Assembly (NCBI GenBank): GCA_041662665.1
Contig: JBAZSC010000002.1
Location: forward strand, 165,234 to 229,233
From: Patescibacteria group bacterium
Lineage (GTDB): Bacteria > Patescibacteriota > JABMPQ01 > JAQVVF01
Direction of reading: 5' to 3'
DNA: 64,000 nt
Made by a program: the position numbers and the translations under genes. How positions within the stretch are numbered: the stretch's first letter is position 1; every line of letters starts with the position of its first letter. Below, in pieces: positions 19,238-59,830 of the stretch. The notes beneath the pieces are model-generated. The model saw only the letters and a list, made by a program, of their open reading frames with translations. It was not told the origin of the DNA and did no database searches.

Positions 19238-20794
19238 TCATTTCACCCCAATTGCAAAATACTGCGTCTTCGTTGGATATTTAGTGAAATACTTTACAAT
19301 GAATTTTCTGTTTTTCTTTATTACTTTAGCATCAGTAAATACTGTAGATATATTCTGCCAAGAACCACCTTTTTTCTTGTATTTCAAATAAAGATTTGAT
19401 GCTGTTGCTGATTTATTTTTCTTTAAAAATTTCTTTAATGCTTTCTTAGTATATTTGAATGTTACTTTAATTTTATATTTCTGTGATAACTTTTTTGCTT
19501 TGTATTTATATAGATTAGTCTTTAATTTCCAATTGCTTAAGAATGTCTTATTTGGATATTTGCTTAATTTATTCCATTGCATCCAATAAGCGCTGTTCTT
19601 TGTTAATTTTGTTGGAAGCTTGGTGAAATTGATAACTAGATTTTGGCCTGAAATTGTTTGTTGATTTAGAGCTGGCATCAACGTAACTTTGTCACCATTA
19701 ATCAAATTGTTCTCCTCTAAAAGCCTATCGTATTCTTTTTGCTCTTCAGCGCTTAAAGTGTATTTCCAGACCTTTCCGACATAACTTTCATCAGAATTAC
19801 TATCACCTCCAGCATAAATTGAACCATCTGAGACTTGAATCAAAGAATAAACATCAGACCCAGCCATTATTCCAGTAAAATCTGACCAAGAACCATTCGA
19901 ATATTTAGAAACTTTAGCATAAACACCATTACCACCTGCATAAATCGAACCATCTAAAGCCTGAGATAGAGAATAAACATGGGTCATATCCAGCGTACCA
20001 GTGATATCTGTCCAAGAATTATTTGAATATCTATAGACTTTAGCATAATTAGTAGAATAAAAACCACCTGAATAGCCACCAGCATAAATTGAACCATCTA
20101 TCGCCTGAAACAAAGATCGAACGTTAGACATATTTAATGTTCCAGTAACATCTGACCAAGAACCATTTGAATATTTAAAAACTTTACCATAATCATCACT
20201 ACCATCATAATAATGTCCTCCAGCATAAATTGAACTATCTGAAGCTTGAATCAAAGAAGTTACAACAGACATATTTGAAATTTCAGAGATACTGATCCAA
20301 GAACCATTTGAATATTTAAAAATTCTATCATCATAATTAAAACCATTATAGACATATCCACCAGCATAAATCGAACCATCTGAGGCTTGAAGTAAAGTAG
20401 TAACAAAAGACATATCCGATAATCCAGAAACATCAGTCCAAGAACCATTCGAATATTTATAGACTTTAGCAAGATAATCGCTAGCTAAAACATATCCGCC
20501 AACATAAATCGAACCGTCTGAGGCTTGAAGTAGAGAAGCTACATTAGACATATTTAATGTTCCAGTAATATCTGACCAAGAACCATTTGAATATTTAGAA
20601 ACTCTACCATAAAAATGGCTACCATCATCATAATTCCCACCGGCATAAATCGAACCATCTGAAGCATAAACCAAAGAATAAACTGTAGATATACTCAATG
20701 TCCCAGTAATATCTCCCCATTCAGCACTAGCAATTCCGCCTAATCCAAACAATAACCCCACGCAAAACAAACTTGTTAATAAAAACTTTCTCAT
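19238..20794 (-). CDS. Secreted beta-propeller repeat protein with the shared Lys-rich C-terminal module
   Basis: A signal peptide is followed by about eight repeats of roughly 45 aa (YSNGSW.D.TG...SLLQASDGSIYAGG). The C-terminal segment of about 150 aa is homologous to the C-termini of four other secreted proteins in this window. Confidence 0.7.
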   Translation of the reverse strand: MRKFLLTSLFCVGLLFGLGGIASAEWGDITGTLSISTVYSLVYASDGSIYAGGNYDDGSHFYGRVSKYSNGSWSDITGTLNMSNVASLLQASDGSIYVGGYVLASDYLAKVYKYSNGSWTDVSGLSDMSFVTTLLQASDGSIYAGGYVYNGFNYDDRIFKYSNGSWISISEISNMSVVTSLIQASDSSIYAGGHYYDGSDDYGKVFKYSNGSWSDVTGTLNMSNVRSLFQAIDGSIYAGGYSGGFYSTNYAKVYRYSNNSWTDITGTLDMTHVYSLSQALDGSIYAGGNGVYAKVSKYSNGSWSDFTGIMAGSDVYSLIQVSDGSIYAGGDSNSDESYVGKVWKYTLSAEEQKEYDRLLEENNLINGDKVTLMPALNQQTISGQNLVINFTKLPTKLTKNSAYWMQWNKLSKYPNKTFLSNWKLKTNLYKYKAKKLSQKYKIKVTFKYTKKALKKFLKKNKSATASNLYLKYKKKGGSWQNISTVFTDAKVIKKNRKFIVKYFTKYPTKTQYFAIGVK

Positions 20795-29023: not shown

Positions 29024-30253
29024 TTACATCAAAGCTGCAGTTAGAATATTTCTTAATTCCGTTAAACGACCCAGTTCTTCTTCATCTTTAGTCTTTCCAA
29101 TCTTCTTTTCTACCCCTTTTAATTCTTTTTTATATTTGCTTCTTACTCCTCTTTCTTTTTTGGATAATGTAAAAAAAGTTTTCAATTCTTTTCCTGTTCC
29201 CATCACTGAACCAGCAATTCCAGACAAACTAGTTTCTGCTAAATTTCTAGCACTTGCCAAAATTTTTGCCATATTAGCACTAGCTTTCTCCAATCCAGGC
29301 GTTTGTCTAAGCTGTTCAGCAGTATAACCCAATTCTCCAGCAATACTCCCAACATTATTAACAACCTTAACCAACCTGTTTTCAGCATCATGAGCTACCT
29401 GTTTTTCTTTCATAAATTGATCTCTTGACACATCATTAACTTTTTTTTCAAGTGATCCAGTATCTTCAGATGAGATTCTTTCATCTTCAACCATTTTAGC
29501 TAATTCCTCAAGTGTTGGTGGCTCTATATCATCATATTCTGCCTTCGGAACATTAGGTGCTGGCAATTTTGCCTCTTTTTTTGACACAGCTAAACCACCT
29601 TCAATCAATCCTTGTACGTCAACATACTCCTCTTCACCACGTATCTCTTTAGGTGTTGGTTCATCGATTTCAACCACACCTTCTCCTTCCTGCGAAGAAT
29701 CTGGCAATGTACGTTGTACATCAGCTCTGCGAGTAAATTCAGTTTCAGTAAAATTGCCGGTTTTTTCATCATATTCAGGCAGATCCGGTACTAAAACAAG
29801 CTCAGTCGGATCAAATTTTTCTAAGTCTGCTTCAGTTAATTCCATTTCATCTGTTTCTAAAGCAGGAGCTGCTTGAACTTTTTGTTCGCCATAAGCACCT
29901 TCCTTAACTGTTGGCACATCCTCAATATTTATTTCTTTTTGAGTCGGCGCTTCATAAATATCTTTCATTGCTTGATCAAGTTTATTGCTCCATTCAGCCC
30001 AGACTTTTTTTTCATCATCAGTTTCTGGCATTCTTGGCAAATCTTCTTTTTTAAATATTTCAACGCCTTGTAAACCAATTTGTTCAATTTGCGAATCCTC
30101 AACTTCTGGAATTACTTCTTCAGCTGTTACAGCTTCTTCAATTCCTGGTTTTATTTCTCTGCCTTTTTTGTCTATAGAAACTTTTTTAAATTCTGTTTCA
30201 CCAGCTGCTTTTCTTTGGACTTCTAACGCTTGCGCATTATCACCTTTTGCCAT
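29024..30253 (-). CDS. Acidic low-complexity protein of unknown function (paralog of 30739..31899)
   Basis: The 409-aa product is Glu/Asp-rich with no signal peptide. Its C-terminal block (GELGYTAEQL...GKELKTFFT) resembles that of 30739..31899 (ELGYGAVSAGENL...GKSLKSFFSG). Confidence 0.5.
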   Translation of the reverse strand: MAKGDNAQALEVQRKAAGETEFKKVSIDKKGREIKPGIEEAVTAEEVIPEVEDSQIEQIGLQGVEIFKKEDLPRMPETDDEKKVWAEWSNKLDQAMKDIYEAPTQKEINIEDVPTVKEGAYGEQKVQAAPALETDEMELTEADLEKFDPTELVLVPDLPEYDEKTGNFTETEFTRRADVQRTLPDSSQEGEGVVEIDEPTPKEIRGEEEYVDVQGLIEGGLAVSKKEAKLPAPNVPKAEYDDIEPPTLEELAKMVEDERISSEDTGSLEKKVNDVSRDQFMKEKQVAHDAENRLVKVVNNVGSIAGELGYTAEQLRQTPGLEKASANMAKILASARNLAETSLSGIAGSVMGTGKELKTFFTLSKKERGVRSKYKKELKGVEKKIGKTKDEEELGRLTELRNILTAALM

Positions 30254-30738: not shown

Positions 30739-31899
30739 TTATTCACCAAATTTTGCTCTTAATTCTTTAAAACGAACTTCTTGCGCTTTTAATTTTTCAT
30801 ATTCTCTTCTTTCCATTTTTTCTTTTGCAGATCCTACTAATACTTTTGCTTGTTCCTTTTTAAATCTTTCCCATTCCGCTATTTTCCTTTTCGTTCTAGC
30901 AATTTCAATTGGAAAATCAGTTGCCATTTCTTTATATGCTTTAACAGCCTCTTCAGAAACCGTTCTTAATCCTGAATCCATTCTTTTCATTGCTATTTTT
31001 GGCAAATTTTCTCCAGCCGAAACAGCACCATATCCTAATTCAGTCATAGTTTTACCAAAAGAAGTTAAAGTATTTTTTACAGGACCGCTAAAAAAACTTT
31101 TTAATGATTTACCTGCCTTATCTAATCTATCTTTTGCAAATCTTGTTAAGCTCTCTACTCTTTGCCTGCCCAATTCAGTATCCCAAATTTGATCTTCTTC
31201 TGCTTTTTTTACTAAAGCTAATCTCTCTGTATCTCTAACAAGAGTATCGGTATTATATATAACAGTATCAACATCTTCGCCACTTGGATTAACCAATGCT
31301 AAATCCAAAGCTGTTTCAACTCTTTGCCAATCGCTATCAAATTGTGCGTCAAATTCAGGATCTAAAAATTGCTCATTATTTCCAGCATTTAAAATCTCTA
31401 AAACCTCAGCTGTAGCTACTTCTTGTCCAGTATCTTTTTTGAGCTCTCTGACCATTTGAGCTAAAACATCTTCTTCTGGAAGTCCTTCCTCGAGTGAAGA
31501 TTTTGGAGGCTCAACTTTTGGAAGCTCAATTGTCTGAGCGCTTTCGATTTGCTTATGTGCGGCAGCCCTTCTCAAAGAAGCTTTTTCTTCTTCTGTTGCT
31601 CCACCTTTTTCAGTTTGAGTAATTTTATGTTCTGCTTTTACACCAGTAGTTGTTATTGGTTGACCATTTTCATCAACTTCTTTAACATCTTTATCAGCTA
31701 CTTCAGTTCCTTGTGCTTCTGGCAACGTTGGTGCAGTTTCCTCTTTAATTGTTGGCGCACCAATCTCAGCAACTGTTGGCGCTTCTTCAATCACAACGCC
31801 CTTGCCACTTTTTCCTTTTTTTCTCGCAGATCTCGATTTTCCTTTATAAAAAGCTTCCTGTTCTTTTGGATTTGGCACATCAATACTTTTTCTTGCCAT
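30739..31899 (-). CDS. Acidic low-complexity protein of unknown function (paralog of 29024..30253)
   Basis: The 386-aa product has PT/E-rich repeats (APTVAEIGAPTIKEETAPTLPEAQ) and a C-terminal block shared with 29024..30253. Confidence 0.5.
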   Translation of the reverse strand: MARKSIDVPNPKEQEAFYKGKSRSARKKGKSGKGVVIEEAPTVAEIGAPTIKEETAPTLPEAQGTEVADKDVKEVDENGQPITTTGVKAEHKITQTEKGGATEEEKASLRRAAAHKQIESAQTIELPKVEPPKSSLEEGLPEEDVLAQMVRELKKDTGQEVATAEVLEILNAGNNEQFLDPEFDAQFDSDWQRVETALDLALVNPSGEDVDTVIYNTDTLVRDTERLALVKKAEEDQIWDTELGRQRVESLTRFAKDRLDKAGKSLKSFFSGPVKNTLTSFGKTMTELGYGAVSAGENLPKIAMKRMDSGLRTVSEEAVKAYKEMATDFPIEIARTKRKIAEWERFKKEQAKVLVGSAKEKMERREYEKLKAQEVRFKELRAKFGE

Positions 31900-34845: not shown

Positions 34846-36897
34846 TTACTTCACGCCAATCGTCAGCAATGTGTCTTTCTGTTTAAAATATCTGAAATCA
34901 GTTGCAAATGTATTTTTCTTAGTCTTCTGTTTTGTATTCGCTATCAATTTCAACTTGTTAGCATTGATCCAAGTCTTAGTTCCTTTGTCATAGATTTTTA
35001 ACCATAACTTCTTTTCAGCTTGTTTTTTCGTTAGCTTCTTTAAAACAGAATTCTTCAGTCTCAATTTATTCACCAATTTAGTAGTATAGTAAAACTTTAT
35101 TCTTACCTTAAACATTTTATTCTGATATTTTACTACCTTCTTTTTGTAAGTCTTCAATTTCGCACTACTACAACTCAAACTGTTATAGCAATCCGCATAA
35201 TTGCTTTCAGCATTTATCAATTTTTTTCTATAAGCTTTTCTATATGTATAAAGATTTGTTCTAACTTTCCAATATCTTTTAATCGTATTTGATTTGTATT
35301 TTGGATATTTTTTATTATATTTTTTGTATCTAAAAGTCTGCAACCAATACCTAGTTGGATCATTAGGAACTTCTTTCCAAGTATAAACTAAATCATAATT
35401 AACTATTTCTTGACCAATAATATCCTCTGTTACAGTTCGCCTTTCAGATTCACCAGTTTCCTCTTCGGCAGCTGATTCAGTTAAAGCAGTTGATATTGTA
35501 TTGCCTGCCCAATCTGACACTCTGAAATATATTGTTTTAACAGTTGAACTCGAAGCAGGATATATACGATCAGTAAAAGTTTCTGAAGTCAAAGCTGTTC
35601 CTATTCCAGCTGTCAAAGGATTGCAAGTATCATTTTCATCAATGCAATAATACTTTGCTCCACCCATTTTTGCATAATCAGATGCCGACATTTTATAACT
35701 AAATTCAGCTCCTGCCTTGCCAGTTAAAGCAACAGTTGCAGTTGGAATAACAGAATCAAGTAAAACTAAATTTTGATTATCATTACCAGTGGAATAATCT
35801 GATATAAAATAATTTTCATTACCATTTATCATTGATGTGTTTGTATTGCCCGCATCCATAGATTCTATTACTGTATCGCTAATTCCAGCAGAGCTATTTG
35901 TAGCATAATTTAAAAAATAGGCTGAAGTATAAGAAGAATGAGAAATATGAGAATAATTTTGACTATCTAATACAATCGATGGTGCTCCACCAATTCCAGT
36001 ACTATTGCAAGTATAAGATTCTGAAGTAAAACCGCTCACACTGCCAGCAGCAACTTTCAAACAAAACGTTGAGCCATTGTAATAAAAATAACCAATTCTT
36101 ACAACATTATCGCTTCCGATAGAAATACTATTATTTTTATACAAAAAATGACTTAGCGCAATAGTAGTAGCAACAGCAACATCCAGCGACCATGACCCAT
36201 TCGCATGCAATTGAATATATCTAATAGCTGCAGTACTTCCTCTATAATATGAAATATGAATATTATCAGATGAATCAACAACCGCCGATATATCCCATCC
36301 ATTATTTCCTGAAACAGCTGCATTTTCTGTAATCCAACTGTCACCACTTAAATATGCATGTTTTACATAACTAGTACCAGCATCAAAAACTTTTTGATAA
36401 AAAACATGGGGAGTACCATTTGAAGTTAAAACTATTGATGTATGATAACCTGTATCGCCATCAGCGTCAGCCGTCCAAACAGAAGACCACGAACCACCAG
36501 TATTTTTATAAACGTACAAATTTGAATCCGATTGAAAACTAATCCAAATATTATTATTAGACTTGTCTATCGCAATCGAACAATATTTTCCGAAATCAAC
36601 AAACAATGAACGCCCAACAACTTCAACTTGCCAAGCAGTTCCATCCCAATATGCATGTTTCAATCCATGATATGTCCCATCCTCATAATACGAACAAAGA
36701 TGAGGATAATCATTACTATCAAGAGCGATAAATCTATCACCAAAATAATCCTTGGCATCACCAACTACGTCTGCAAAAGTCACCTTTCCACTTTCATTCG
36801 TTTGCGTCACTGCCTTCGCTTGATTTGTATTAGCAATCATTCCAAATGCAAAGAAAATTGCTAAAAAACAAAGTAAAGACAATACTTTTTTCTTCAT
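34846..36897 (-). CDS. Secreted repeat protein with the shared Lys-rich C-terminal module
   Basis: A signal peptide is followed by W-containing beta-propeller-like repeats, a CHB_HEX_C-like segment (TVKTIYFRVSDWAGN), and a C-terminus homologous to the other four secreted proteins (RYWKVRTNLYTYRK...TIGVK). Confidence 0.65.
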   Translation of the reverse strand: MKKKVLSLLCFLAIFFAFGMIANTNQAKAVTQTNESGKVTFADVVGDAKDYFGDRFIALDSNDYPHLCSYYEDGTYHGLKHAYWDGTAWQVEVVGRSLFVDFGKYCSIAIDKSNNNIWISFQSDSNLYVYKNTGGSWSSVWTADADGDTGYHTSIVLTSNGTPHVFYQKVFDAGTSYVKHAYLSGDSWITENAAVSGNNGWDISAVVDSSDNIHISYYRGSTAAIRYIQLHANGSWSLDVAVATTIALSHFLYKNNSISIGSDNVVRIGYFYYNGSTFCLKVAAGSVSGFTSESYTCNSTGIGGAPSIVLDSQNYSHISHSSYTSAYFLNYATNSSAGISDTVIESMDAGNTNTSMINGNENYFISDYSTGNDNQNLVLLDSVIPTATVALTGKAGAEFSYKMSASDYAKMGGAKYYCIDENDTCNPLTAGIGTALTSETFTDRIYPASSSTVKTIYFRVSDWAGNTISTALTESAAEEETGESERRTVTEDIIGQEIVNYDLVYTWKEVPNDPTRYWLQTFRYKKYNKKYPKYKSNTIKRYWKVRTNLYTYRKAYRKKLINAESNYADCYNSLSCSSAKLKTYKKKVVKYQNKMFKVRIKFYYTTKLVNKLRLKNSVLKKLTKKQAEKKLWLKIYDKGTKTWINANKLKLIANTKQKTKKNTFATDFRYFKQKDTLLTIGVK

Positions 36898-36970
36898 TTT
36901 TTTGATTTTATTTTTATAAAAATTTTGTTAAGTATATTATAACACAAATAATAATAATAGATATCCCAAC

Positions 36971-38125
36971 TTAATTAAACTTCGCCACTACATTATAAAA
37001 AATCTGATAAACAATTCCTCCGCCAAAAATTATATACAAAATATAAATTAAAAATTTCGGCAATCTCAATGAATAAGCTGGCTTTAATTGTCCTATTTTT
37101 TTTGCCTTCAAAAACATTCTCAATATCATAATACCTTGCAAACCGCCAGTCACTGTTCCAACTATTTCAATAACCGCAATAAAACTCCTTGCACCTAAAA
37201 CAAAAATTATTAATGGTATTGTAACTGTAATAACCCACGCCCAAATATTTTTTATTTTATAATCAAATTGAAACATATCTTTCATTGTCATACCAAGACT
37301 AAAAAAAGAAGTTGCCACAGCTAAAATACCTAAGATCGCTCCAGCAACAACAATCTTCCTACCCAAAATTTTGCTAACACCAACAATTGCTTCCTCGCTT
37401 GTTTGATCGCCAGAAATTCCAACAATCACAAAACTAAAAAATAAATAAACTAAAAAAGCAATTATCATTCCAAATATAATCGCAATTTTTAATCTTCTCT
37501 TATTCTTCGCTAATAAATCAACCATGCCCGGAATAGTCGACGCACCTTCATAAGAAAATAGAATAACACCATAAGGCAAAAACAAAGATCCTATTCCTAA
37601 ACCAATAAAATTAGTTAAACTTATTTCACGAACTCCGATAATAATCACAAAACCAACAATTAATAAAAGCAGAAAAACCATTAAATTCTCGAGCTTTTCT
37701 ATTACTCTCATGCCGAATAATAAAGCAATACTCGCTAGAATATAAAAAATGAGCGAGTATAAAAAAGGCGTCCCACCAAAATAAGGCTTAAAAACTATCG
37801 CTAAAAAATTACCGATACCTATAGTATAAGCTAAAGTTGCACCAAAAACTCCAAAAATTAACGAAAATGCTACTGTTCTTTGTCCCCAAATTCCAGCATA
37901 TTTTTTTGCATAACCAGTCATCTGATGATGACCTTTTGTCCTCAAAATAATCTCGCCAAACGCCAAAGTTGTAATTGTTACCATAATTCCCAAAATCAAC
38001 AAATACAAAAAACCAACTCCAAAACCAACTTTGGAAATTACATAAGGAATACCAAACATACCAACACCAATCACAGTGCCAACCAACATCGCTACAGCGC
38101 TAAAAAAATTTGCTTTCAATTTCAT
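36971..38125 (-). CDS. Amino acid permease (APC/aromatic amino acid transporter-like), about 11 TM helices
   Basis: The product is hydrophobic throughout, and its N-terminus FSAVAMLVGTVIGVGMFGIPYV is typical of amino-acid permeases. Confidence 0.65.
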   Translation of the reverse strand: MKLKANFFSAVAMLVGTVIGVGMFGIPYVISKVGFGVGFLYLLILGIMVTITTLAFGEIILRTKGHHQMTGYAKKYAGIWGQRTVAFSLIFGVFGATLAYTIGIGNFLAIVFKPYFGGTPFLYSLIFYILASIALLFGMRVIEKLENLMVFLLLLIVGFVIIIGVREISLTNFIGLGIGSLFLPYGVILFSYEGASTIPGMVDLLAKNKRRLKIAIIFGMIIAFLVYLFFSFVIVGISGDQTSEEAIVGVSKILGRKIVVAGAILGILAVATSFFSLGMTMKDMFQFDYKIKNIWAWVITVTIPLIIFVLGARSFIAVIEIVGTVTGGLQGIMILRMFLKAKKIGQLKPAYSLRLPKFLIYILYIIFGGGIVYQIFYNVVAKFN

Positions 38126-38214
38126 AGATATAATACAAATATACGAATTTATACAAATGATACAAATATGCGAATTCGTATATTCGCAACATTTGCATTA
38201 TTTGTATATTCGTA

Positions 38215-38472
38215 TTATTTTTTCCAGAATTCCCACCATTTCTTTTGTATTTTTTCTTCTTTATCCGCCGAAGCTTTAGCGAAGGCGGACTCTCTCATCT
38301 TTTCTGCAACGTCTTCTTGTTCGTCTGGCCTTAGATTAAATTTGCTTTCTTCGTTCATTTCATTATGTTGCTTATCAATTGTTTTCTCTTGCATCTTGTT
38401 TGCATAACCAGAATCACGCGCATCTTCTCTCTTCTTTTCAACACGATCAAATGGATTTTGTTGGTCTACCAT
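38215..38472 (-). CDS. Small charged hypothetical protein carrying an in-frame palindromic element (SAFAKASADKEEK)
   Basis: The 85-aa ORF contains the 26-nt element at 38264-38289. Its coding status is uncertain. Confidence 0.35.
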   Translation of the reverse strand: MVDQQNPFDRVEKKREDARDSGYANKMQEKTIDKQHNEMNEESKFNLRPDEQEDVAEKMRESAFAKASADKEEKIQKKWWEFWKK

Positions 38473-38490
38473 AAATTTAAAATTATTTTA

Positions 38491-40329
38491 TTAAATAGTG
38501 CTGATCGCAAACTTATTCTTTTGCCATCTAAAATTATTAATCCAAATTCTAAACTTTTTTTCTTTTTTTAAATATACTGCTGGCATAGTCTGCCATTGAT
38601 TAGTATTATTATTATAAAATTTTAATTTCAAATCTTTTTTCTTTAACCCATGCAATAATCTATTTCTAAATTTAAAAACCATTTTAATTTTAAATTTTTT
38701 ATCACTTTTTATCTTGTTTAAATTTGATTCTATTTTCCAATAGCCTTTTAATGTTTTTGATTTATTCAAACCACTCGGTTTTTTTGCTATTCTCGCTATT
38801 TTAAACCAATAATCAGTCGGTTTGTTAGGTATTTTTTTAAACTTAAAATCCAATAATTTTCCTTCTAAAGCAATATTTTTCAATCCTTTTCTTAAATCAA
38901 ATTTCTTATCATTATAAACGATATTGTAATTTTCTGTCCTGACGATTTCTTGATTACCAAGACTATCAACTGAAAAAAATTTTAATGTTTTGTCATTAAA
39001 AATTCTAAACGCTGAAGAATATTTTGTTGAACTAATGGTCGGTGTTGAACCGTCAAGAGTATAATAAATTCCTGAAATGCCATTTGTATCTGTAGCAGTT
39101 AAAGTAATTTTTTTATATTTTTTATAATCTCCGCCTACAGGCACTGCTACAGTTTTCGGCTCCAAAAAATTTTCTGAAATTTTATTCCACAAATCAGCAT
39201 ATCCATTGTCATATCCCAAAGCCCAAATTCCAATACCTAACAAAGCATTATCATTCACCAAATCATATTTATATTGCAAGCTTTCTTCATCCTCATACCA
39301 AGTCTGCCTAAAACTTCCATATTTATAGTAAGGAGTTTTTGAATCATTATCCCAAATTCGTGAATAATTTAAAATTGCCAATCTATTTTCAGCATAAGTT
39401 TTTGCTTCACCAGTCCCAATCGTATTAGCTGGAACTGTATCAGCACTAACTTCCCAATCATAACCATAATAAGGCACACCTAAAATCAATTTTTGTCGAT
39501 TATTATTTGTTAAACTTAAATAAGTTTCTAATGTACTCACAACATTATAATTACCCCAAGTACTACTATCATCATATGGAGCAATTGGACCTGCAGTTGA
39601 TCCGCTTTGCCAATGGTAATCATAAGCCATAATCATCAATCCATCAGAATTTAAAGCTAGCGCATTTTCATCAAAAGCATCAGACCAATCAACAGCCGGC
39701 ACATCAATTGCAATATGATAAGAAGAATTGGAAATTTTAAAAGTATTATTCAAATCAGTGATAAAAGTCGTCAAATTTGTTTTCATCGCAGAATCGACAT
39801 TTTCAAAATCAATATTTATTCCGTCAGCAGATGTGCTTTTAACTTCATTCAATAAATTATTAATTAAGTTATTTCTATAAGTTGCGTTTGATAATAAAGT
39901 TGATAAATCAGATGAACTAAAATTTTGTGCTGTTAAAACAACTTTCACTCCATTTTGATGAGCCAAATTTAATAAAGTATTATTTGGCCAGCCATGTTTA
40001 TCTCCCAAACTCCCATCGCTATTAACTTCAATTGAAAAATATGCCAAATGCGTAATCAAATTCCATTGAAAATTTGCATAAGTATCACCCATCCAATAAG
40101 GAAAAAAACCATAAACAACTTTAGAAACATCTGGCGATAAACTAACATTGCCATTGCTGACAATTCCAATATTACTTTCTTTAATTCTATAATCCTTATA
40201 TTTTTCAAGTTCAGTTTGATGAATACTCTTATCATCCGACAAAACATTAAGTGAAGATAAATTAGCAAAAACAAAATTTCCAGAAAATAGAATTAAACAA
40301 ATAATTAAAATATAAAATATTTTTTTCAT
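38491..40329 (-). CDS. Secreted GH18-family (chitinase-like) protein with a CHB_HEX_C-like domain and the shared Lys-rich C-terminal module
   Basis: A signal peptide is followed by the GH18 core (VVYGFFPYW...DGINIDFEN, MAYDYHW), the segment YYTLDGSTPT, and the shared C-terminus (GYWKIESNLNK...). Confidence 0.7.
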   Translation of the reverse strand: MKKIFYILIICLILFSGNFVFANLSSLNVLSDDKSIHQTELEKYKDYRIKESNIGIVSNGNVSLSPDVSKVVYGFFPYWMGDTYANFQWNLITHLAYFSIEVNSDGSLGDKHGWPNNTLLNLAHQNGVKVVLTAQNFSSSDLSTLLSNATYRNNLINNLLNEVKSTSADGINIDFENVDSAMKTNLTTFITDLNNTFKISNSSYHIAIDVPAVDWSDAFDENALALNSDGLMIMAYDYHWQSGSTAGPIAPYDDSSTWGNYNVVSTLETYLSLTNNNRQKLILGVPYYGYDWEVSADTVPANTIGTGEAKTYAENRLAILNYSRIWDNDSKTPYYKYGSFRQTWYEDEESLQYKYDLVNDNALLGIGIWALGYDNGYADLWNKISENFLEPKTVAVPVGGDYKKYKKITLTATDTNGISGIYYTLDGSTPTISSTKYSSAFRIFNDKTLKFFSVDSLGNQEIVRTENYNIVYNDKKFDLRKGLKNIALEGKLLDFKFKKIPNKPTDYWFKIARIAKKPSGLNKSKTLKGYWKIESNLNKIKSDKKFKIKMVFKFRNRLLHGLKKKDLKLKFYNNNTNQWQTMPAVYLKKEKKFRIWINNFRWQKNKFAISTI

Positions 40330-40332
40330 TAA

Positions 40333-41307
40333 TTATTTTAGAGAATCCAAATAATATTTTAAAATTTTAGTCCAAATTTCTAATAATTTTTCTTTCTCTT
40401 CAAGAGGAATATCTGATCCGCCTATATCTGCCAAAATTGTCCCAACAGATCTTCCCAACATTCCTAAATCAAACCCTTTTTTATCAGTAAGTTCATTCTT
40501 AACAAAAATATTTTTCCAATCCAAACTTTCTTTCAATGCCAAATCATAATTTATAATCTTTCTTGCATCTTGAATTATTGACCAAACTATAAAAGGTCCT
40601 TCGGCAAATTCAGGTTGCCAACAACAATGAGCAAAATCAGTCAAATAATACTTGTCCGCCGAAGTCCCACAGGACGTAGGCGGATTTACCTTAAAAATTT
40701 CCTTTGGCTTAAAATGTCCATGTGTCCAGATAAATTTATATCCATTGCCATCTTTTTTCAAAACATCAATCGCTTTTTCACACAAATCATAACTCTCTTG
40801 TTTTAACCAACTTTTTTCTTTTGCCAATTTTTTCCATTTTGATATATTTCTCAACGCCCAATCGCCAACTGTCTTATCTTTAAAAATTTTTAATTCAGGA
40901 TTTTTGGGCCAGATCTTTTTATATTCGATAAAAACTTTAAAAAATTCTTCTCTGTTTTCAACTTTCGGCATGCCCTCAAAAATATGTTTGCTTGTATCAA
41001 TGTATTCTTCAATCAGCCAGCCGGAATGATCATCATACATTTTATAATTATATAATTTCGGAGCAGTTAAAATTTCACTTTTATTATTTTTTAAAAATTC
41101 TTTCAAATTCAAAGGTTCATACACTTCTCTTGGATCTTTCCACATTTTCAAAATCGCTTTTTTATTTTCAAAATTTCCTTTAAAAATAATATTTCTTGTT
41201 TTGCCTTTTCTATAATAGGTACTTGAATAAATTTCTTTTTCGGAAACAAAGCGAGCCTCTAAAATTATCCTTTTTATTTCCGCATCGCTTAAAAAATCAA
41301 ATTTCAT
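40333..41307 (-). CDS. Phosphotransferase (APH/choline-kinase-like kinase fold) with a palindromic element inserted near the catalytic loop
   Basis: The motifs HGHFKPKEIF and YYLTDFAH resemble the HGD.hp.N / DFE motifs. The element at 40655-40684 encodes NPPTSCGTSADK between them. Confidence 0.55.
   Translation of the reverse strand: MKFDFLSDAEIKRIILEARFVSEKEIYSSTYYRKGKTRNIIFKGNFENKKAILKMWKDPREVYEPLNLKEFLKNNKSEILTAPKLYNYKMYDDHSGWLIEEYIDTSKHIFEGMPKVENREEFFKVFIEYKKIWPKNPELKIFKDKTVGDWALRNISKWKKLAKEKSWLKQESYDLCEKAIDVLKKDGNGYKFIWTHGHFKPKEIFKVNPPTSCGTSADKYYLTDFAHCCWQPEFAEGPFIVWSIIQDARKIINYDLALKESLDWKNIFVKNELTDKKGFDLGMLGRSVGTILADIGGSDIPLEEKEKLLEIWTKILKYYLDSLK
40655..40684. repeat. Palindromic element variant TCCGCC-GAAGTCCCACAGGACGTAG-GCGGA in frame in the kinase-like gene
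   Basis: It has the same 6-bp arms and the GAAG...AG loop ends, but the loop core differs. Confidence 0.55.
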
Positions 41308-41316
41308 AACTCAAAA

Positions 41317-41394
41317 TATCTGTGTTATTTGTGTAAAATTCTTATTAATTTGTCATCAATCTGTGTAATTTGTGTTCATCTGTAATAAATCTGC
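41317..41394. repeat. ATCTGTG/ATTTGTG tandem array
   Basis: The sequence is atctgtgttatttgtgtaaaattcttattaatttgtcatcaatctgtgtaatttgtgttcatctgtaataaatctgcc. Confidence 0.7.
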
Positions 41395-41396
41395 CG

Positions 41397-43373
41397 TCAT
41401 TTGCGGGAAGCTAAAGTAAACCAGTTTTTCATTTTTGAAAAAAATCTGATATCTGTCGACAATAATTTTTGATTTTTTTTCAAAATAGTTTTGTTCCTTT
41501 TATTCCAAAAATTTATATAACTTTCTTCTTTCGAAAATAATTCCAAATTTTTTGCTTTTATCTTAGATTTTTTTATACTTTTTTTTGTATATGGAAAAGA
41601 AATTTTTACTCTAAACTTTCCAGAACTTTTTTTATACAAATTTGTCCTCAATTTCCAATAATATTTTAATGATTTTTCATTCTCCAAAAAATTAGGCTTT
41701 TTCTTTACTTTTTCAATTTGTATCCAAAATTTTTCTGGAGTTTCAGGCAAATTCAAAAACTTTATTCCAACTCCTGTTTTACTAGAAATATATTTTATAC
41801 CCAAAGAATCGTCATTAAATTTAATATATTTTTTAAAATATTTAATTGCAATTTTTGACAAAGATCCAATGCTCGCTTCAGGTTCGTCAGCTGTATATTT
41901 CCTATCGCCAAAAAGTTTTATCATCCAATCATTATCAGAATCACCAGTTGAAAAGCCAGCTAAAACGAAATCATCATTTTGATTAAAATCGATATCTAAA
42001 TATGCCTCGTCATTGCTTTCATCTTCTACAATTTCTTTCAACAAATTTCCATCACTATCATATTTCCTAACCAATAAATCATTGCCTGTTTCTGCTTTTG
42101 AATTTCCAACAACCATTATTTCATCAGCAATATTAACTTCCATTCCATACAAATAATCGTTTCCTAATTCGCTATCATACAACCTATCCCACAATAAATT
42201 TCCTTCAGAATCTAATTTTCGAAGCAACCAATTATTATCTGTTTCATTATAATATCCGCCTAAATAAATGTTATCATTTGAATCTACATTAACTGCTTTA
42301 AAATAATCAGCAGTTCCTTTTTCATAATTAGAATTCCAATCTTCAACTAAATTATTATCATATTTTATTGTATAAAATTCAAAGCTTGAAGCAGTCGCAC
42401 TGTTTCCAGTTGCAATAATATTATTTCCTGAATCAACCACTAAATCATACAAAATATCATCACCAAGTCCAGAATTATATTCTTGATCAGTTATGACATT
42501 ACCATTTGCGTCATATTTTCTAAGATACCAATTCTTATCAGAATTTATTTTTAATCCTCCAACAATAATATTATCATCAGAATCAGTTATTACCGCATTT
42601 GCTTCGTCGATATTTCCTGAATCATAAATTTTACTCCACAAAATATTGCCATCAGAATCATATTTTCTAAGATACCAATCTTTATCGCCTAATAATTCAT
42701 AATAACCAATAACAATAATGTTATCCGATTTATCAATTGCCAAATCTTTAACCTCGCCATTATCAAAATCAAAAGTATCTGACCAAATTTCCTCTCCATC
42801 GTTATTGTATTTTATTAATCGCCAATCATTGCCATCAGCTTCATTAATATAATTTCCAGCTATAACAAATTCACCAGTTGATAAAAATTTTACGCCTTTC
42901 GCTTGATCATTGCCATTTCCACTATCATAATTTTTAACAAAAAAATTGACTGGCTCTAGTTCCATTGTTTCATTATATGAACTTGCTAAAACAGCTTCTG
43001 AATTTCCAAAATAAAGATAAATTGTCTTATTGCTATTTGCCAAAAGTTCTGACACTTCCACCCAAATAATTGCCGAATTTTCTTCATAATCAAATTCTTT
43101 CAGCCAAAAATCAAGATCTGTTGAATCATCAGCATCAACTAATCTAATATCTGATCCATCACTTTTTATCCTTGCCCAAAAATCAACTTGTTCGTCTGTC
43201 AAAGTTATTTTTACTTGATAATTGCTCAGGTTTTCTGAATTTAAAGAATTTTCCAAAACAATTGGCATTCGATAATCATAATCATTACTATACCAAGCCG
43301 AAGCCGAATTAGAAATAACAAAATAACAAAATAACAAAATAACAAAAATCGCCCCAATTAAAATTCGTTTCAT
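41397..43373 (-). CDS. Secreted SBBP-type beta-propeller repeat protein with a DUF2341-like N-terminal domain and the shared C-terminal module
   Basis: A signal peptide/TM is followed by six or more repeats of the form KDWYLRKYDSDGNILWSKIYDSG...DNIIVGG, which fit the SBBP motif. The C-terminus KYYWKLRTNLYKK... matches the family. Confidence 0.7.
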   Translation of the reverse strand: MKRILIGAIFVILLFCYFVISNSASAWYSNDYDYRMPIVLENSLNSENLSNYQVKITLTDEQVDFWARIKSDGSDIRLVDADDSTDLDFWLKEFDYEENSAIIWVEVSELLANSNKTIYLYFGNSEAVLASSYNETMELEPVNFFVKNYDSGNGNDQAKGVKFLSTGEFVIAGNYINEADGNDWRLIKYNNDGEEIWSDTFDFDNGEVKDLAIDKSDNIIVIGYYELLGDKDWYLRKYDSDGNILWSKIYDSGNIDEANAVITDSDDNIIVGGLKINSDKNWYLRKYDANGNVITDQEYNSGLGDDILYDLVVDSGNNIIATGNSATASSFEFYTIKYDNNLVEDWNSNYEKGTADYFKAVNVDSNDNIYLGGYYNETDNNWLLRKLDSEGNLLWDRLYDSELGNDYLYGMEVNIADEIMVVGNSKAETGNDLLVRKYDSDGNLLKEIVEDESNDEAYLDIDFNQNDDFVLAGFSTGDSDNDWMIKLFGDRKYTADEPEASIGSLSKIAIKYFKKYIKFNDDSLGIKYISSKTGVGIKFLNLPETPEKFWIQIEKVKKKPNFLENEKSLKYYWKLRTNLYKKSSGKFRVKISFPYTKKSIKKSKIKAKNLELFSKEESYINFWNKRNKTILKKNQKLLSTDIRFFSKMKNWFTLASRK

Positions 43374-55085: not shown

Positions 55086-55120
55086 CTTCCTTCCCTCCTC
55101 TTCTGGTCTGTGGCCAAGGT

Positions 55121-55214
55121 GCAAAATAAAGAACAAAAAACCACTGACTGCAGTGGATTGTTTCTTTGCTTTTTAATTTAGGCAATCAAACAATTCACCG
55201 CTGTCCGTGGCTAA
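55121..55214 (-). promoter_or_regulatory. Conserved leader element: motif TTAGCCACGGACAGCGGTG, spacer, GC hairpin CCACTGCAGTCAGTGG and T-run (candidate attenuator or small RNA); paralogous to 59826..59911
   Basis: The two copies are about 75% identical over some 45 nt, and each ends in a CCAC...GTGG hairpin followed by a T-run on the minus strand. Confidence 0.35.
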
Positions 55215-55370
55215 AAAAGAAAAAATATCTATTTGTTAGTATATTCTTTTTCATCAAATTAAATATAATCTAATAAAAATAATTAGTCAAGATTTTATTA
55301 TCAACCAAAAAAAATTAAAAAATATAAAAAACAGGCATTTTGTTTTTGCCTGTTTCATAATTTTTAATCT

Positions 55371-58300
55371 TTATTCAAAAAAGAAATCTTGACTATCCGA
55401 TGTTTCAGAATTTGTTAAATTAGATAAAGCATTTTTCTCAGCAATCACGAATTTAATCTTTTTCAATGTTCTAAAATAGAAAGATGGAGCAAATGGTCTG
55501 TTCTTTGTTTTAATATCTAGCGGATTTGGAATTGGATTCTTTGGAGGTTTTACTAGATAATTTCTAATTTTAAATTTCAGAGTATGAGTTGTTTTGTTTT
55601 GATATATTCTGTATGGTCCTCGCCAGATGTTGTCTCTGTCTTTGATGAATAATCTTAAATTCTTTTCTTTAATATTTGTCTTGTTTAATTTTGTCTTGGA
55701 ATATCTAACTGAAACTCTGAAATTAATATGTTTATTAACATTTTTTTGATAAGCTTTTTTGACTGTGCCGATATTTGATAATAGTTTTAAATAACCAGGA
55801 TAGCTGTTCTTCTTAGTAAATCCATTTAGATGTTTCTTCTTGTTTCTGATTAATTTAATGTAGAGATCTTTGATTACTTTTTGTTTTGGAAGAAGATAGA
55901 AAAGAAGATCTGCATTATCTGTAACGCTTTGATAGGTTTGATTTAGAATTACGTTTTCTAAATTAAGTTTTTCGGTAAAAAGAATGGCTGAAATGATAAC
56001 ATAGTTTTCTGTTTTGATACTTTCTGTATGGCCTAAAATGTCAACTGAAAAGAATTTAAGTGTTGCTGTTTCAGAAATTGTAATTGGCGTTGTGTATTGT
56101 GTTGATAACGTAGTTGGATCTATACCATCAAGTGTATAATATGTTATTGCTGTTTCATCTGTTGTTAAAGTTACAGCTTGAGCGTTATCGTATGTTCCAC
56201 CAGCTGGAGTAGCAGTTGTTACTGGTGCTTCTGTATCAATGATAACAGAACCAGTTGCTGACCAATCAGATATATTGTCAGCTATATCTACTGCATTGAC
56301 TCTAAAATACCAAGTACCATCAATCAAAGAAATTGTATGAGTAAAAGAGTTTGCTATTGCAGTTGAGATATTCAAATCACAACCAATAAAGCTTGAATTA
56401 TCGCACCATTGTACATTGTAAGCTGGATCACCTAGTCCTGAAGTTGTATCTGTTGATGCTGTCCATGTCCATTCTGGCTTGTTATTATTAGTTGGTGAGG
56501 TTGTTATAGGATCACCTGGAATTGAAGGAGGTGTTGTGTCAATTTGAACTAGATAACTGTTGTAATTGTTAGATGGATCATTATCAAGATTAACAGCGAT
56601 CGTATGAATATACCAAACTCCATCTGAAGGAACAGTTGCAGTAAATATGCCATCTGCATCAAAAGTACCAGCAAGTACTTCAACTTGAGTTGGTGTTGAA
56701 TTTTGAGAAACTAGATAATGATAATTTGTTGTAGAAGATCCATTGGATGATAATGACATATCAACTAATGCATCTGAATACCAAGTAACATGGGATGGAT
56801 GAGATGATGATGTAAATGTTGGATCTGGTGGTGTAACATATTCATACGCTCCCATATCATAATAGTCTACTGCACCTGCTCCTGTATTTACTACATCTGG
56901 ATCATCATATCTTTGCTTGCCAGCATAGTCAGTGGCAATATCTGTGTCGTAACCAGCATCGATGGCTGGAGAATCAGATTGAAGATGAAAGTCCGATCCA
57001 AAAGTTACAAATTTTGGATCAGTTATAATACTGCCTGTTCCACCTTCATTAGATGAATTATAGTAATCATTATATGAAATACTTTGTGTTCCAGCAGTAC
57101 TCGACAACACATCCGTAATGTTATAAAAAATATCATCTTTAAGATTAAGCGTTCCACCGCTCTGATTGATAAAAATACTTCCTGCAGAAGCTCTCCAAAA
57201 AACACTGTTATAAATATTAGCTGTCCCGCCAGCGAGTGTTATAAATGTTGTAGGAGCAATATTCATCACCTTTGATGCTATATTCAATGTTCCGTTGGTC
57301 ACAGTAAACGTGTTTGATGCGCCCATTGTTGGAGTATCAACAAGAGTGAGAGTTCCACCAGGAGCGTTAAGAGTTAAATTTTTTCCCCAAGTATTACCAT
57401 TTGTAGTCAGAGTATAAGATGATCGCCCTTCGAAAGTATACAATTGTGTCGATGCCGAAAACGTCCAGCTTGCAACAGGAGCAAGGGTCAGCGATCCAAA
57501 TATACTTGTAGCAGTACTTGTTGTGAAAGTCGGATTATTCGTAATGCCAGATTCTCCATTTAAACCTAAAAAAGTGGTAGTCGATATACGAGGCATATCC
57601 TGTATCAAAGTCATTCCTGTTGAACCAAAAGATGCCGAATCAAAAATAGCTGTGTCTTGACAAAGAGGCACGCGGCCAGCACCACCAATACCTCCAGAAG
57701 ATAGATACCAATTACCATCAGTACTCCAATTATTGCTAGCCCCGCTTAACTTGTACCAATATTGAGGAGTAGATGTTGTAAATAAAATACTGGAATTACC
57801 ACCACAATCCCCGCTTCTACCCGAAATATTACTCAGATCGTTCATAGATGCTAATTCCCATGTAACGGCAGAATAAATAGTATTAGCAATAGCTGCATAT
57901 CCAGCAGCAGACGGATGTAAATGATCACCATTATCATAAATTGGAAGAAGTTTATCCGGATCTGATGGATCTTCTAGAGCAGTATAAGTTTCAGCAACTA
58001 TATCCACGTCTGTAGCGCTATTTTGAATCCAATCATTGATCTGATCAGTTTTAATCTGTGCTGCTTCATACCACTCTGAATGTCCTTTCCATGGTGTTAT
58101 TTTTGCGGCAATTACAGTGAGACCTGCAGTTTTTAACGCGGTATACATGCTTTGCAGATTAGATTCAGTGCTCGCCACACTGTATCCGCTGCGTATGTCA
58201 TTCACTCCACCTAATACAATCGCATAACGAACATTCTGCAAGCTTGTGATAGAAGAAATTCTAGCAAGCATCGCATCGGTCTTTTGCCCATCGACACCAA

Positions 58301-59324
58301 AATTATATACACCGTATCCATATTCATTTGAATTTAGCTCTGTCGTCAAAAATTGAGGATAGGAACCATTATTTGCAGGTGTAGGATAACCTCTTGTAAT
58401 ACTGTCCCCAATAGCACCAATTGACTTAGTCGGCAAAGAAACATCGCGAAAATCTGTATTTGAGATAGAAATAGAAATAGCATTTATAATTCGTCGAAGG
58501 TTGATAGTGTCTGAGGCAACCAACATCCGGTTTGTCGAACTATTTCCGTTAATGGTTAAACTGTGTGTAACTGTAATATCTCCAGCAAGTGTAAATGTGT
58601 TGGTTTTACTGTTTGTGCCAGTTCTAGTCAGATCATAAAATGAGATATTTCCTGTGAGAGTATGAGCCGTTCCACTAAATGAAACTGCATGTGCATTAGG
58701 ATCAAAGTATCCAGAATTCAAAGCAAAAAGAACAGCTAAACCGAAATCCACATTGCTTGCTAGTTGTAATGTCCCAGTACCGGACATAATAAGAGAAGTC
58801 TTTATTTGAACACCGTTTGTGTTTAATGTTGTGGTAGTCCCAGTTGCTGGCGCAAAACGAGTGTATCCGCCACCATCTCCATAGGTCATACCTGATACCA
58901 GCACTGTTGATCCATATGAAAAAAGTGATACTCCTCCTGCAATAAATAATGTCGGATTTCCAGTGGCCGGATTAGCCCATGTAACATTATTACAATAGCC
59001 TGTGGCATTAACATTAACACTGTACGAATTAGCTGATGAATTGGAATCAAAAAAACAATTATCACTAGAGGTTGGCAGATTGCCTGCATCAGGACTGCCA
59101 CCAGACGTAGCTGCCCAATGAGTTGCAGCATCGCTCCAATTTCCTGAACCACCTACCCAATATCTTTCCGCTGCACTCGCCACCGCACCTCCAAAAAAAC
59201 AAACTCCCAAAACAAAAAAAAGACTCAAAAGAATCTTGTATTTTGAAATACCAAAAAATTTTACCTTTCCATTAAGCCCCCCCCCTCGTACTTTTTTGTT
59301 TATTTTTGTATTAAAAAAATACAT
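55371..59324 (-). CDS. Large secreted SGNH/GDSL-hydrolase-domain surface protein with beta-helix and Ig-like domains, a CHB_HEX_C-like domain and the shared Lys-rich C-terminal module
   Basis: A signal peptide precedes the GDSL motif IGAIGDSITRGYPT and a later DHLHPS. The protein also has YYTLDGIDPT and the shared C-terminus. A G9 tract lies at codons 13-15. Confidence 0.75.
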   Translation of the reverse strand: MYFFNTKINKKVRGGGLNGKVKFFGISKYKILLSLFFVLGVCFFGGAVASAAERYWVGGSGNWSDAATHWAATSGGSPDAGNLPTSSDNCFFDSNSSANSYSVNVNATGYCNNVTWANPATGNPTLFIAGGVSLFSYGSTVLVSGMTYGDGGGYTRFAPATGTTTTLNTNGVQIKTSLIMSGTGTLQLASNVDFGLAVLFALNSGYFDPNAHAVSFSGTAHTLTGNISFYDLTRTGTNSKTNTFTLAGDITVTHSLTINGNSSTNRMLVASDTINLRRIINAISISISNTDFRDVSLPTKSIGAIGDSITRGYPTPANNGSYPQFLTTELNSNEYGYGVYNFGVDGQKTDAMLARISSITSLQNVRYAIVLGGVNDIRSGYSVASTESNLQSMYTALKTAGLTVIAAKITPWKGHSEWYEAAQIKTDQINDWIQNSATDVDIVAETYTALEDPSDPDKLLPIYDNGDHLHPSAAGYAAIANTIYSAVTWELASMNDLSNISGRSGDCGGNSSILFTTSTPQYWYKLSGASNNWSTDGNWYLSSGGIGGAGRVPLCQDTAIFDSASFGSTGMTLIQDMPRISTTTFLGLNGESGITNNPTFTTSTATSIFGSLTLAPVASWTFSASTQLYTFEGRSSYTLTTNGNTWGKNLTLNAPGGTLTLVDTPTMGASNTFTVTNGTLNIASKVMNIAPTTFITLAGGTANIYNSVFWRASAGSIFINQSGGTLNLKDDIFYNITDVLSSTAGTQSISYNDYYNSSNEGGTGSIITDPKFVTFGSDFHLQSDSPAIDAGYDTDIATDYAGKQRYDDPDVVNTGAGAVDYYDMGAYEYVTPPDPTFTSSSHPSHVTWYSDALVDMSLSSNGSSTTNYHYLVSQNSTPTQVEVLAGTFDADGIFTATVPSDGVWYIHTIAVNLDNDPSNNYNSYLVQIDTTPPSIPGDPITTSPTNNNKPEWTWTASTDTTSGLGDPAYNVQWCDNSSFIGCDLNISTAIANSFTHTISLIDGTWYFRVNAVDIADNISDWSATGSVIIDTEAPVTTATPAGGTYDNAQAVTLTTDETAITYYTLDGIDPTTLSTQYTTPITISETATLKFFSVDILGHTESIKTENYVIISAILFTEKLNLENVILNQTYQSVTDNADLLFYLLPKQKVIKDLYIKLIRNKKKHLNGFTKKNSYPGYLKLLSNIGTVKKAYQKNVNKHINFRVSVRYSKTKLNKTNIKEKNLRLFIKDRDNIWRGPYRIYQNKTTHTLKFKIRNYLVKPPKNPIPNPLDIKTKNRPFAPSFYFRTLKKIKFVIAEKNALSNLTNSETSDSQDFFFE

Positions 59325-59436
59325 ATTTGTTTTTCTTATATAAATTTTGATAATCTAAGTATACCACATCTAAAAGAAAAAATTATCCACAAAAAAAGAG
59401 CGTCAAAACGCTCTACTCAAAAAAAGAACAAAAAGA

Positions 59437-59667
59437 TCAGCCGAGTTGTCCGAAATTGGAATGAATCAAAGGATTAAAACGCGAACCGTACTCACGTTCA
59501 AATTGCATTTCAACATCATTCAAATCCTTTCGATTTTTGCGATACACGTAAATGAGCTTTTCATGATCAGTCATCTCATCCCATGTCTTCGTCTTCATCT
59601 TCTCTCTTCCTCCTTTTCCGCAGGCACAGACACTACAAGGAGTCGTACAATTGCAGACCATACTCAT
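59437..59667 (-). CDS. Small Cys-rich hypothetical protein (N-terminal CNCTTPCSVCAC)
   Basis: The RBS AGGAGGGAGGA precedes the ATG. The ORF has higher GC than its surroundings and is preceded by the conserved leader motif/hairpin. Confidence 0.45.
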   Translation of the reverse strand: MSMVCNCTTPCSVCACGKGGREKMKTKTWDEMTDHEKLIYVYRKNRKDLNDVEMQFEREYGSRFNPLIHSNFGQLG

Positions 59668-59762
59668 TTTCCTCCCTCCTTTTCCTCTCCTCTCTCGCAG
59701 ACAAAATGAACTAATAATTATTAGCAGATTTGTGAATAATTATCAAGACATTTTGACAATCA

Positions 59763-59830
59763 GATGTCGGATGTCGGAAGTCGGAAGTCGGAACGTTCCG
59801 AAGTTCTGACGCTCCGACGTTCCGACGCTC
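59763..59830. repeat. GC-rich GTCGGAA / CGTTC(C/T)GACG repeat with dyad symmetry; the same family is in frame in tsaB (32330-32372)
   Basis: The sequence is gtcggatgtcggaagtcggaagtcggaacgttccgaagttctgacgctccgacgttccgacgctcc. Confidence 0.65.

Follow-up and report, generated by a model that had tools for sequence, protein, structure and literature searches.

What is the function of a lysine-rich domain that recurs at the C-terminal end of five secreted proteins whose N-terminal domains are unrelated? This question is raised by a stretch of 64,000 nucleotides from the genome of a Patescibacteria group bacterium (GenBank assembly GCA_041662665.1, contig JBAZSC010000002.1, positions 165,234 to 229,233 of the forward strand), which is called the window in the following and which contains the genes of these five proteins, named here by their first coordinate in the window (19238, 34846, 38491, 41397, and 55371; Table 1). 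The basic module shared by them represents a sequence family that is undescribed in the Pfam, NCBIfam, and PDB sequence libraries, and we assign a probability of roughly 50% to the reading that it is a retention domain which binds non-covalently and electrostatically to an anionic polymer of the cell envelope, probably that of the producing cell itself.

The initial annotation of the window described the five proteins as secreted, as having different functional parts, and as ending in a common module of 130–150 amino acids. The list of open reading frames (ORFs), translated with the standard code, agrees exactly with the gene coordinates given there and places all five genes on the minus strand. 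From each of the five sequences a Sec-type signal peptide can be read, in which a basic n-region and a hydrophobic core are followed by a cleavage-like site of small residues, and the N-terminal domains detected with Pfam are those described (Table 1). The C-termini of the five proteins align over about 150 columns. When profile hidden Markov models (HMMs) were built from four of the sequences and scored on the omitted fifth, E-values of 2e-17 (41397), 4e-13 (38491), 1.4e-9 (19238), and 3.5e-8 (34846) were obtained, and one of only 1.7e-3 for the divergent module of 55371. Composition-preserving shuffles (200 per module) scored below 4 bits, compared to 12.6–58 bits for the real modules. A profile made from 34 independent sequences, excluding both the window sequences and those of the 55371 type, recovered all five proteins with E-values between 2e-36 and 1.5e-7, the next window ORF following at an E-value of about 0.3, and no sixth copy of the module was found when the window ORFs were scanned with such profiles. 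The length had been underestimated: in the window the module comprises 144–205 amino acids, and the median of the family is 165.

The motif string quoted in the initial annotation corresponds to truly conserved columns. In 90 aligned module stretches, the two residues of the YW motif are conserved to 76 and 69%, the asparagine of the TNL motif to 87%, the tyrosine of FKxKxxFxY to 91%, the two leucines of LxL to 93 and 90%, and the tryptophan to 94%. Almost no variation is seen in N, L, Y, L, L, W, and F, which, apart from the one asparagine (that of TNL), occupy hydrophobic or aromatic positions of the core; several lysine columns are conserved to 60–77%, and there are conserved non-lysine surface motifs (LPxK, YW, and TNL).

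The most striking property of the module is its charge. In the window, the modules have isoelectric points (pI) of 10.1–10.5, net charges of +28 to +37, and a lysine content of 17–24%, while the rest of the same proteins has a pI of 4.1–5.2, a net charge of −14 to −58, and a lysine content of 2–6%. The same dichotomy holds for the family (n = 76), with medians of +33, pI 10.3, and 23% lysine for the modules and of −18, pI 4.5, and 4% lysine for the N-terminal parts. Strands such as KFKIKVTFKY alternate lysine with hydrophobic residues, a sequence pattern which implies that one face of a sheet is lined with lysine.

The structure of the module was predicted with AlphaFold2, using an alignment of 40 sequences for the module of 38491 and a separate alignment for that of 55371. 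The 38491 model is a ten-stranded beta-sandwich with a mean predicted local distance difference test score (pLDDT) of 92.9 and a predicted template modelling score (pTM) of 0.87; the divergent module of 55371 was modelled with the same core (pLDDT 81.2), its insertion and tail being of low confidence. Judged from these two models, which agree with each other and with the beta-sandwich foreseen in the initial annotation, the module is a compact folded domain and not a low-complexity sequence. A Foldseek search against the PDB returned nothing significant (no match below an E-value of 0.07). The predicted fold resembles the beta-sandwiches of ZU5 (ankyrin, UNC5, PIDD; PF00791), GAIN-B/GPS, and FIIND domains, to which the sequence identity is only 3–14%, and we therefore speak of a ZU5-like fold and regard homology to the superfamily as putative. 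In contrast to its ZU5 counterparts, the module is predicted to be extracellular in a bacterium, is extremely basic, and is located at the C-terminal end of secreted enzymes.

With respect to sequence, the claim that the module had not been described before was borne out; with respect to the fold, it was not. No consistent match was found for 40 isolated modules in Pfam (E ≤ 1), NCBIfam (E ≤ 0.1), or the PDB sequences, where a profile search gave only a spurious match to CdiA-CT (E-value 0.022), and no significant Pfam hit was located on the module in 13 individually scanned proteins. Neither known anchoring families nor ZU5-type families are found among the best 25 of 44 Pfam families listed for 72 full-length relatives. 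Specifically, LysM, SLH, GW/SH3b, WxL, CW_binding_1/2, and SLAP are absent from the Pfam matches of the five window proteins, from the Pfam (E ≤ 1) and NCBIfam (E ≤ 0.1) matches listed for the 40 isolated modules, and from the same 25 families. The C-terminal pattern LxLxYY..W....F..FAIG brings PGF-pre-PGF or ZU5-type domains to mind, but no such Pfam hit was obtained. The module thus belongs to a sequence family that is new, but its fold is known, and so, most probably, is the kind of job it does; we see in it no new principle and no new secretion system.

The family extends beyond the window. When 1.84 billion cluster representatives (clusters at 50% identity) were searched exhaustively with HMMER at E ≤ 1e-3, 88 relatives were found, 58 of them at E ≤ 1e-10; the module recurs in other genomes. 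Word-indexed homologue searches, which returned just 3 and 5 matches, are nearly blind to the family, and the alignment of one subfamily (A4) matched three genome loci. A source name is attached to 9 of the 20 clusters looked up and to two further proteins (P0002 and P0003), and all of these are Patescibacteria; the names of the closest relatives read "Patescibacteria group bacterium" or "uncultured Candidatus Saccharibacteria bacterium". The family is small and confined to one part of the candidate phyla radiation. Besides the five paralogues of the window, at least three to four are present in each of three other metagenome-assembled genomes (MAGs), and such a multi-copy distribution is expected for a general display module.

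The architectures of the relatives are equally informative. A hydrophobic run is present at the N-terminus of 67 of the 81 family proteins that start with methionine, and a regular-expression scan of the last 60 residues found no LPXTG-like motif in any family member. The Pfam domain CHB_HEX_C_1 was detected in 30 of the 72 full-length relatives (E ≤ 1e-3), and P0017 has seven CHB_HEX_C copies ahead of the module; other N-terminal parts comprise FG-GAP, several types of propellers, some of them YncE-like, GDSL, GH18, BNR, and beta-helix domains. In the window this Ig-like domain is less common than initially stated: instead of four of the five proteins, only 38491 and 55371 carry CHB_HEX_C_1/Fn3_assoc according to Pfam. 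The stretch preceding the module of 34846 has a non-significant CHB_HEX_C resemblance (BLASTP E-value 0.6), which led to its rejection, and no such domain precedes the module in 19238 and 41397. Of 85 proteins, 62 stop 0–1 residue past the last strand, and 54 of these end with K or R after a conserved [FY][FA]IG motif, usually as FAIGxK. The module makes up nearly the whole protein in P0002 and P0003 (228 aa), where it stands alone behind a signal peptide, and it is internal, between two propellers, in P0031, P0037, and P0039. The latter three (833–885 aa) have a less basic and less conserved module end and could be genuine fusions or could result from the loss of a stop codon between tandem genes.

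How might such a module work? The proteins would be exported by the Sec system with removal of the signal peptide, and the lysine-covered C-terminal sandwich would then bind electrostatically to a polyanionic component of the monoderm envelope of Patescibacteria, which might be a wall polymer similar to teichoic acid, a negatively charged polysaccharide of the wall, or the head groups of anionic lipids. The acidic part that carries the function (a GH18 glycosidase, a GDSL esterase, or a binding domain of the propeller or FG-GAP type) would be kept at a distance from the wall, in many proteins by a stalk of one to seven Ig-like CHB_HEX_C domains. Because signal peptides are present and an LPXTG motif is missing, the module is the only candidate for a retention device in these proteins, and its occurrence alone or in an internal position is more readily reconciled with a binding domain than with a signal at the terminus. 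Among the roles proposed initially, non-covalent attachment to the envelope is the one that a basic module on acidic passengers, the stalked architecture, and the lack of another anchor favour. From these features we infer both the nature of the ligand, an envelope polyanion, and its origin in the producing cell and not in a host.

The order of functional domain, Ig-like stalk, and C-terminal module mirrors that of wall-anchored surface proteins of Gram-positive bacteria, and there are known systems with which it can be compared. The GW modules of Listeria InlB and Ami, as well as LysM, SLH, WxL, CW_binding_1/2, and SH3b domains, are likewise reusable C-terminal modules by which diverse passengers are displayed non-covalently, and GW modules are basic and bind lipoteichoic acid; they and the other wall-binding modules are tandem short repeats, whereas the module described here is a single domain of 145–200 amino acids. 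In Lactobacillus SlpA, the positively charged C-terminal TAB domain anchors surface proteins to (lipo)teichoic acid by binding its phosphate groups (PMC11181022), and a C-terminal basic region combined with a separate functional region is common to TAB/SLAP proteins and the proteins studied here. The SlpA domain differs, however, in belonging to an unrelated fold and sequence family and in having tandem motifs with a YxY...KxxN phosphate site, while the module has no Pfam SLAP hit and its ligand is putative. The C-terminal domain (CTD) recognised by the type IX secretion system (T9SS) is also a beta-sandwich at the extreme C-terminus of unrelated secreted proteins, but with about 80–100 amino acids it is shorter, it lacks the basic character, and in Bacteroidota it depends on an outer-membrane translocon, whereas the module is sometimes internal or alone.

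Three observations weigh against retention on the envelope of the producer. Charge alone cannot distinguish between the producer's wall, a host's wall, membranes, and DNA; the structurally closest domains, i.e., those of the ZU5 type, are protein–protein interaction or autoproteolytic modules and not wall binders; and a scan of viral contigs with one subfamily revealed no phage carrier, such as an endolysin or a receptor-binding protein, by which binding to the wall could have been corroborated. What is known of charge and architecture is equally compatible with a host-directed adhesin, in which the cationic sandwich would bind the anionic wall (teichoic acids, lipoglycans) or the membrane of the bacterium on which these presumably episymbiotic cells live and deliver the GH18, GDSL, and propeller domains to it. 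The wall- or glycan-active enzymes among the passengers and the existence of secreted modules that stand alone fit this possibility, as does the published description of all cultivated Patescibacteria as episymbionts (PMC11623550). We nevertheless regard it as unlikely, since the module is located at the C-terminal, stalk-proximal end while adhesive tips are usually distal, and since, with binding to the host only, nothing else would retain the proteins on the producer. Less probable still is docking to a specific acidic protein partner, such as an S-layer, a pilus, or another surface scaffold, in the manner of the ZU5 domains of ankyrin and UNC5; it is suggested by the top structural matches of the two independent models, which are spectrin-binding ZU5 domains and CASC1/IC97, located on microtubules, and by the conserved non-lysine surface motifs. 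The extreme positive charge and the YncE-like propellers among the passengers would also be compatible with the capture of extracellular DNA or RNA at the surface of an organism that relies on scavenged nucleotides, an explanation to which we give little credence.

The initial annotation had also considered recognition by a dedicated export pathway. By analogy with T9SS CTDs or sortase signals, the machinery of such a pathway might also remove the module. The frequent chain end directly after the last strand with its K/R following [FY][FA]IG, and the terminal beta-sandwich as in T9SS CTDs, speak for such a sorting signal. Sec signal peptides are already present, however, the module is internal in three proteins and nearly the entire protein in two, neither a T9SS match (Por_Secre_tail/TIGR04183-type) nor a sortase-signal match was obtained in Pfam and NCBIfam, and Patescibacteria are thought to be single-membraned. 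The proposed inspection of the genomic context for secretion genes revealed no conserved export or processing gene flanking any of eight neighbourhoods, and no T9SS component (such as PorU, PorV, or SprA) is encoded among the about 100 genes of the window and eight related loci. The neighbourhoods of the relatives share nothing with each other, containing the core of a diversity-generating retroelement (DGR) and SLT (L005), DAGK (L006), RecJ, RNase H, and polysaccharide genes (L009), or rpoC, radical SAM, and FtsK genes (L007). Because no neighbour is conserved in the eight loci, a dedicated export pathway was rejected, and a sorting function is very improbable. Autoproteolytic release is another activity that the ZU5-like, GAIN subdomain B-like, and FIIND-like fold brings to mind. 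HFS and HL|T/S are known as variant autoproteolytic motifs. Bacterial members of the ZU5 superfamily, for which a C-terminal CxH thiol site has been described, have been proposed to act as autoproteolytic release modules of polymorphic toxins and large surface proteins (Zhang et al. 2012, PMC3482391). In the module, the maximal column conservation is 1% for cysteine, 37% for histidine, and 33% for serine, so that none of the described cleavage motifs is present, and no hit to ZU5, GPS, or FIIND was found at E ≤ 1 in the 40 isolated modules or is listed for the 72 full-length relatives at E ≤ 1e-3 (best 25 of 44 families); moreover, in most members there is nothing downstream of the module that could be released. 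Since no catalytic column is conserved, autoproteolysis was rejected as a highly improbable function, and the module is very probably not autoproteolytic. Finally, the initial annotation had named a low-complexity artefact as a possible refutation of the family, and lysine-rich tails of an AT-rich genome might align by chance. The GC content of the window (31%) and the large HMMER bias terms (17–54 bits) point in this direction, but the shuffled controls, the independent profile, core columns that are hydrophobic or aromatic and conserved to 90–94%, the confident AlphaFold models, and the lysine-poor remainder of the same proteins refute this explanation, which retains a negligible probability.

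If retention on an envelope polyanion is taken one step further, the module may be the signature of a lineage-specific surface-display system, a counterpart of LPXTG or SLH anchoring in which a ZU5-like sandwich binds a polyanion of the producer's or the host's envelope; we put this forward tentatively, as somewhat doubtful. In that case, its presence would mark those proteins of the uncultivated episymbionts that are exposed on the surface and face the host, wall-active GH18 and GDSL enzymes among them, and the ZU5/GAIN-like fold would gain a bacterial, extracellular branch that is apparently non-catalytic and non-proteolytic. Little is known about how Patescibacteria, which are abundant, for the most part uncultivated, and seemingly reliant on other cells, build and decorate their surface. 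A recognisable anchoring module would allow the surface proteome to be read from metagenomic sequences and would point to the enzymes and binding proteins that are most likely to act at the interface of symbiont and host, and fusions to the module would offer a handle for labelling or capturing cells. The value of the module is limited in that the family is small, occurs in one part of the radiation, and has a function deduced from charge, position, and architecture.

The features of the window that concern the module family are compiled in Table 1. The five genes are dispersed among genes which for the most part have housekeeping functions (SBP_bac_5, RNase J, TrpRS, SSB, S6, YchF, EF-P, RecA, RodZ-like, FtsK, rpoC, rpoB, TsaD-like, Mur ligase, QueH, Lon, FemAB, RuvA, UvrB, HolA, and PolA); a single tRNA-Leu gene is also present. 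Together with the names of the relatives, this gene content identifies the window as a piece of the chromosome of a bacterium of the candidate phyla radiation. Three of the five (34846, 38491, and 41397) had been described as clustered; two genes that do not belong to the family stand between them.

Table 1 Genes of the proteins with a basic C-terminal module, the modules themselves, and intervening genes in the window
Feature	Position	Strand	Description	Basis
Gene 1 (19238)	19238..20794	-	518 aa: signal peptide, Reg_prop/DUF5122-like beta-propeller repeats, short linker, basic module	ORF, translation, Pfam
Basic module, gene 1	19241..19711	-	157 aa; K 23%, pI 10.4, net +35; protein end ...YFAIGVK	Independent HMM, E 2e-36
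Gene 2 (34846)	34846..36897	-	683 aa: signal peptide, N-terminal region without Pfam match, basic module	ORF, translation, Pfam
Basic module, gene 2	34849..35463	-	205 aa; about 35-aa insertion after TNL motif; pI 10.1, net +37; protein end ...LLTIGVK	Independent HMM, E 5e-20
Intervening gene, not of the family	36971..38125	-	Amino-acid permease (Trp_Tyr_perm)	
Gene 3 (38491)	38491..40329	-	612 aa: signal peptide, GH18, CHB_HEX_C_1/Fn3_assoc Ig-like domain, basic module	ORF, translation, Pfam
Basic module, gene 3	38494..38925	-	144 aa; K 24%, pI 10.5, net +31	Independent HMM, E 6e-33
Intervening gene, not of the family	40333..41307	-	324-aa cytoplasmic-looking protein, no Pfam match	
Gene 4 (41397)	41397..43373	-	658 aa: signal peptide, DUF2341, DUF5122-type propeller repeats, basic module	ORF, translation, Pfam
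Basic module, gene 4	41403..41849	-	149 aa; pI 10.3, net +28	Independent HMM, E 7e-25
Gene 5 (55371)	55371..59324	-	1317 aa: extended N-terminus and signal peptide, GDSL/SGNH hydrolase, long Thr/Ser/Gly-rich repetitive region, CHB_HEX_C_1, divergent basic module, 20-aa acidic tail	ORF, translation, Pfam
Divergent basic module, gene 5	55434..55991	-		Independent HMM, E 1.5e-7 (34-sequence profile); E 4.8e-9 without its own subfamily
Acidic tail, gene 5	55374..55433	-	20 aa (NALSNLTNSETSDSQDFFFE) after the module; low AlphaFold confidence	

Several observations on individual genes may be added. The GH18 motif of 38491 reads DGINIDFE in the translation and thus has an asparagine at the second aspartate of the canonical DxxDxDxE, the third aspartate and the catalytic glutamate being retained. 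The 324-aa protein encoded between 38491 and 41397 has no signal peptide, and its motifs WTHGHFKPKEIF and YLTDFAHCCW suggest a possible likeness to phosphotransferases of the aminoglycoside/choline-kinase type. In a related MAG, the orthologues of the GH18 and DUF2341 proteins have the consecutive accessions MDD3887627 and MDD3887628, which suggests that the gene of the 324-aa protein is missing there. Directly downstream of rpoB, two Glu/Lys-rich proteins of about 400 amino acids are encoded (29024–30253 and 30739–31899, both on the minus strand), which have no family match and no signal peptide and show no detectable mutual similarity except for a short GK.LK.FF stretch.

Outside the window, locus L005 (GCA_028699085.1, JAQVVF010000017.1, positions 107–2788) contains the DGR core mentioned above, consisting of bAvd (107–481) and an RVT_1 reverse transcriptase (627–2063), directly upstream of the gene of P0002. 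The 5′ part of the reverse transcriptase ORF includes an Asn-rich stretch, NNVGSNGYYWSS...NGLTARCL, that looks like a C-type-lectin template repeat. As P0002 adjoins bAvd and the reverse transcriptase, the idea was raised that it might be the DGR target. It was rejected as the variable protein because no repeat of at least 30 nt ties its gene to the reverse transcriptase region; furthermore, what looks like the template repeat codes for YWSS...RCL, a C-type-lectin-like sequence that is absent from the module. The target gene of this DGR is probably cut off by the end of the contig.

The remaining observations concern gene 55371. The acidic tail following its module is specific to its subfamily, in which nine proteins have exactly 20 residues past the module. 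At the other end of the protein, about 30 residues precede the signal peptide (window 59180–59324, minus strand; NKKVRGGGLNGKVK), and they are conserved in P0008 and P0009; this stretch may be a true extension of the N-terminus that has been conserved, or else the start codon was wrongly called and a conserved 5′ leader is read as protein. The N-terminal two-thirds of the gene (window 56000–59300) have a GC content of 36–42%, compared to 24–31% in the flanking genes and 26–28% in its own module-coding end, a shift that could reflect the amino-acid composition (Gly-, Ala-, Thr-, and Ser-rich repeats) or a foreign origin of the passenger. In the upstream intergenic region (59400–59900), the GC content peaks at 43.7% (59600–59899), and a small ORF (59437–59667) encodes 76 amino acids with a Cys-rich N-terminus, CNCTTPCSVCACG. 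No Rfam family scored above noise in the gaps on either side of gene 55371, including 59400–59900. About 120–260 nt downstream of the stop codon (55371–55373), a hairpin-forming stretch is located (55107–55254), whose only Rfam hits, to hairpin families that are unrelated, are weak and below the threshold, and which most likely is a transcription terminator.

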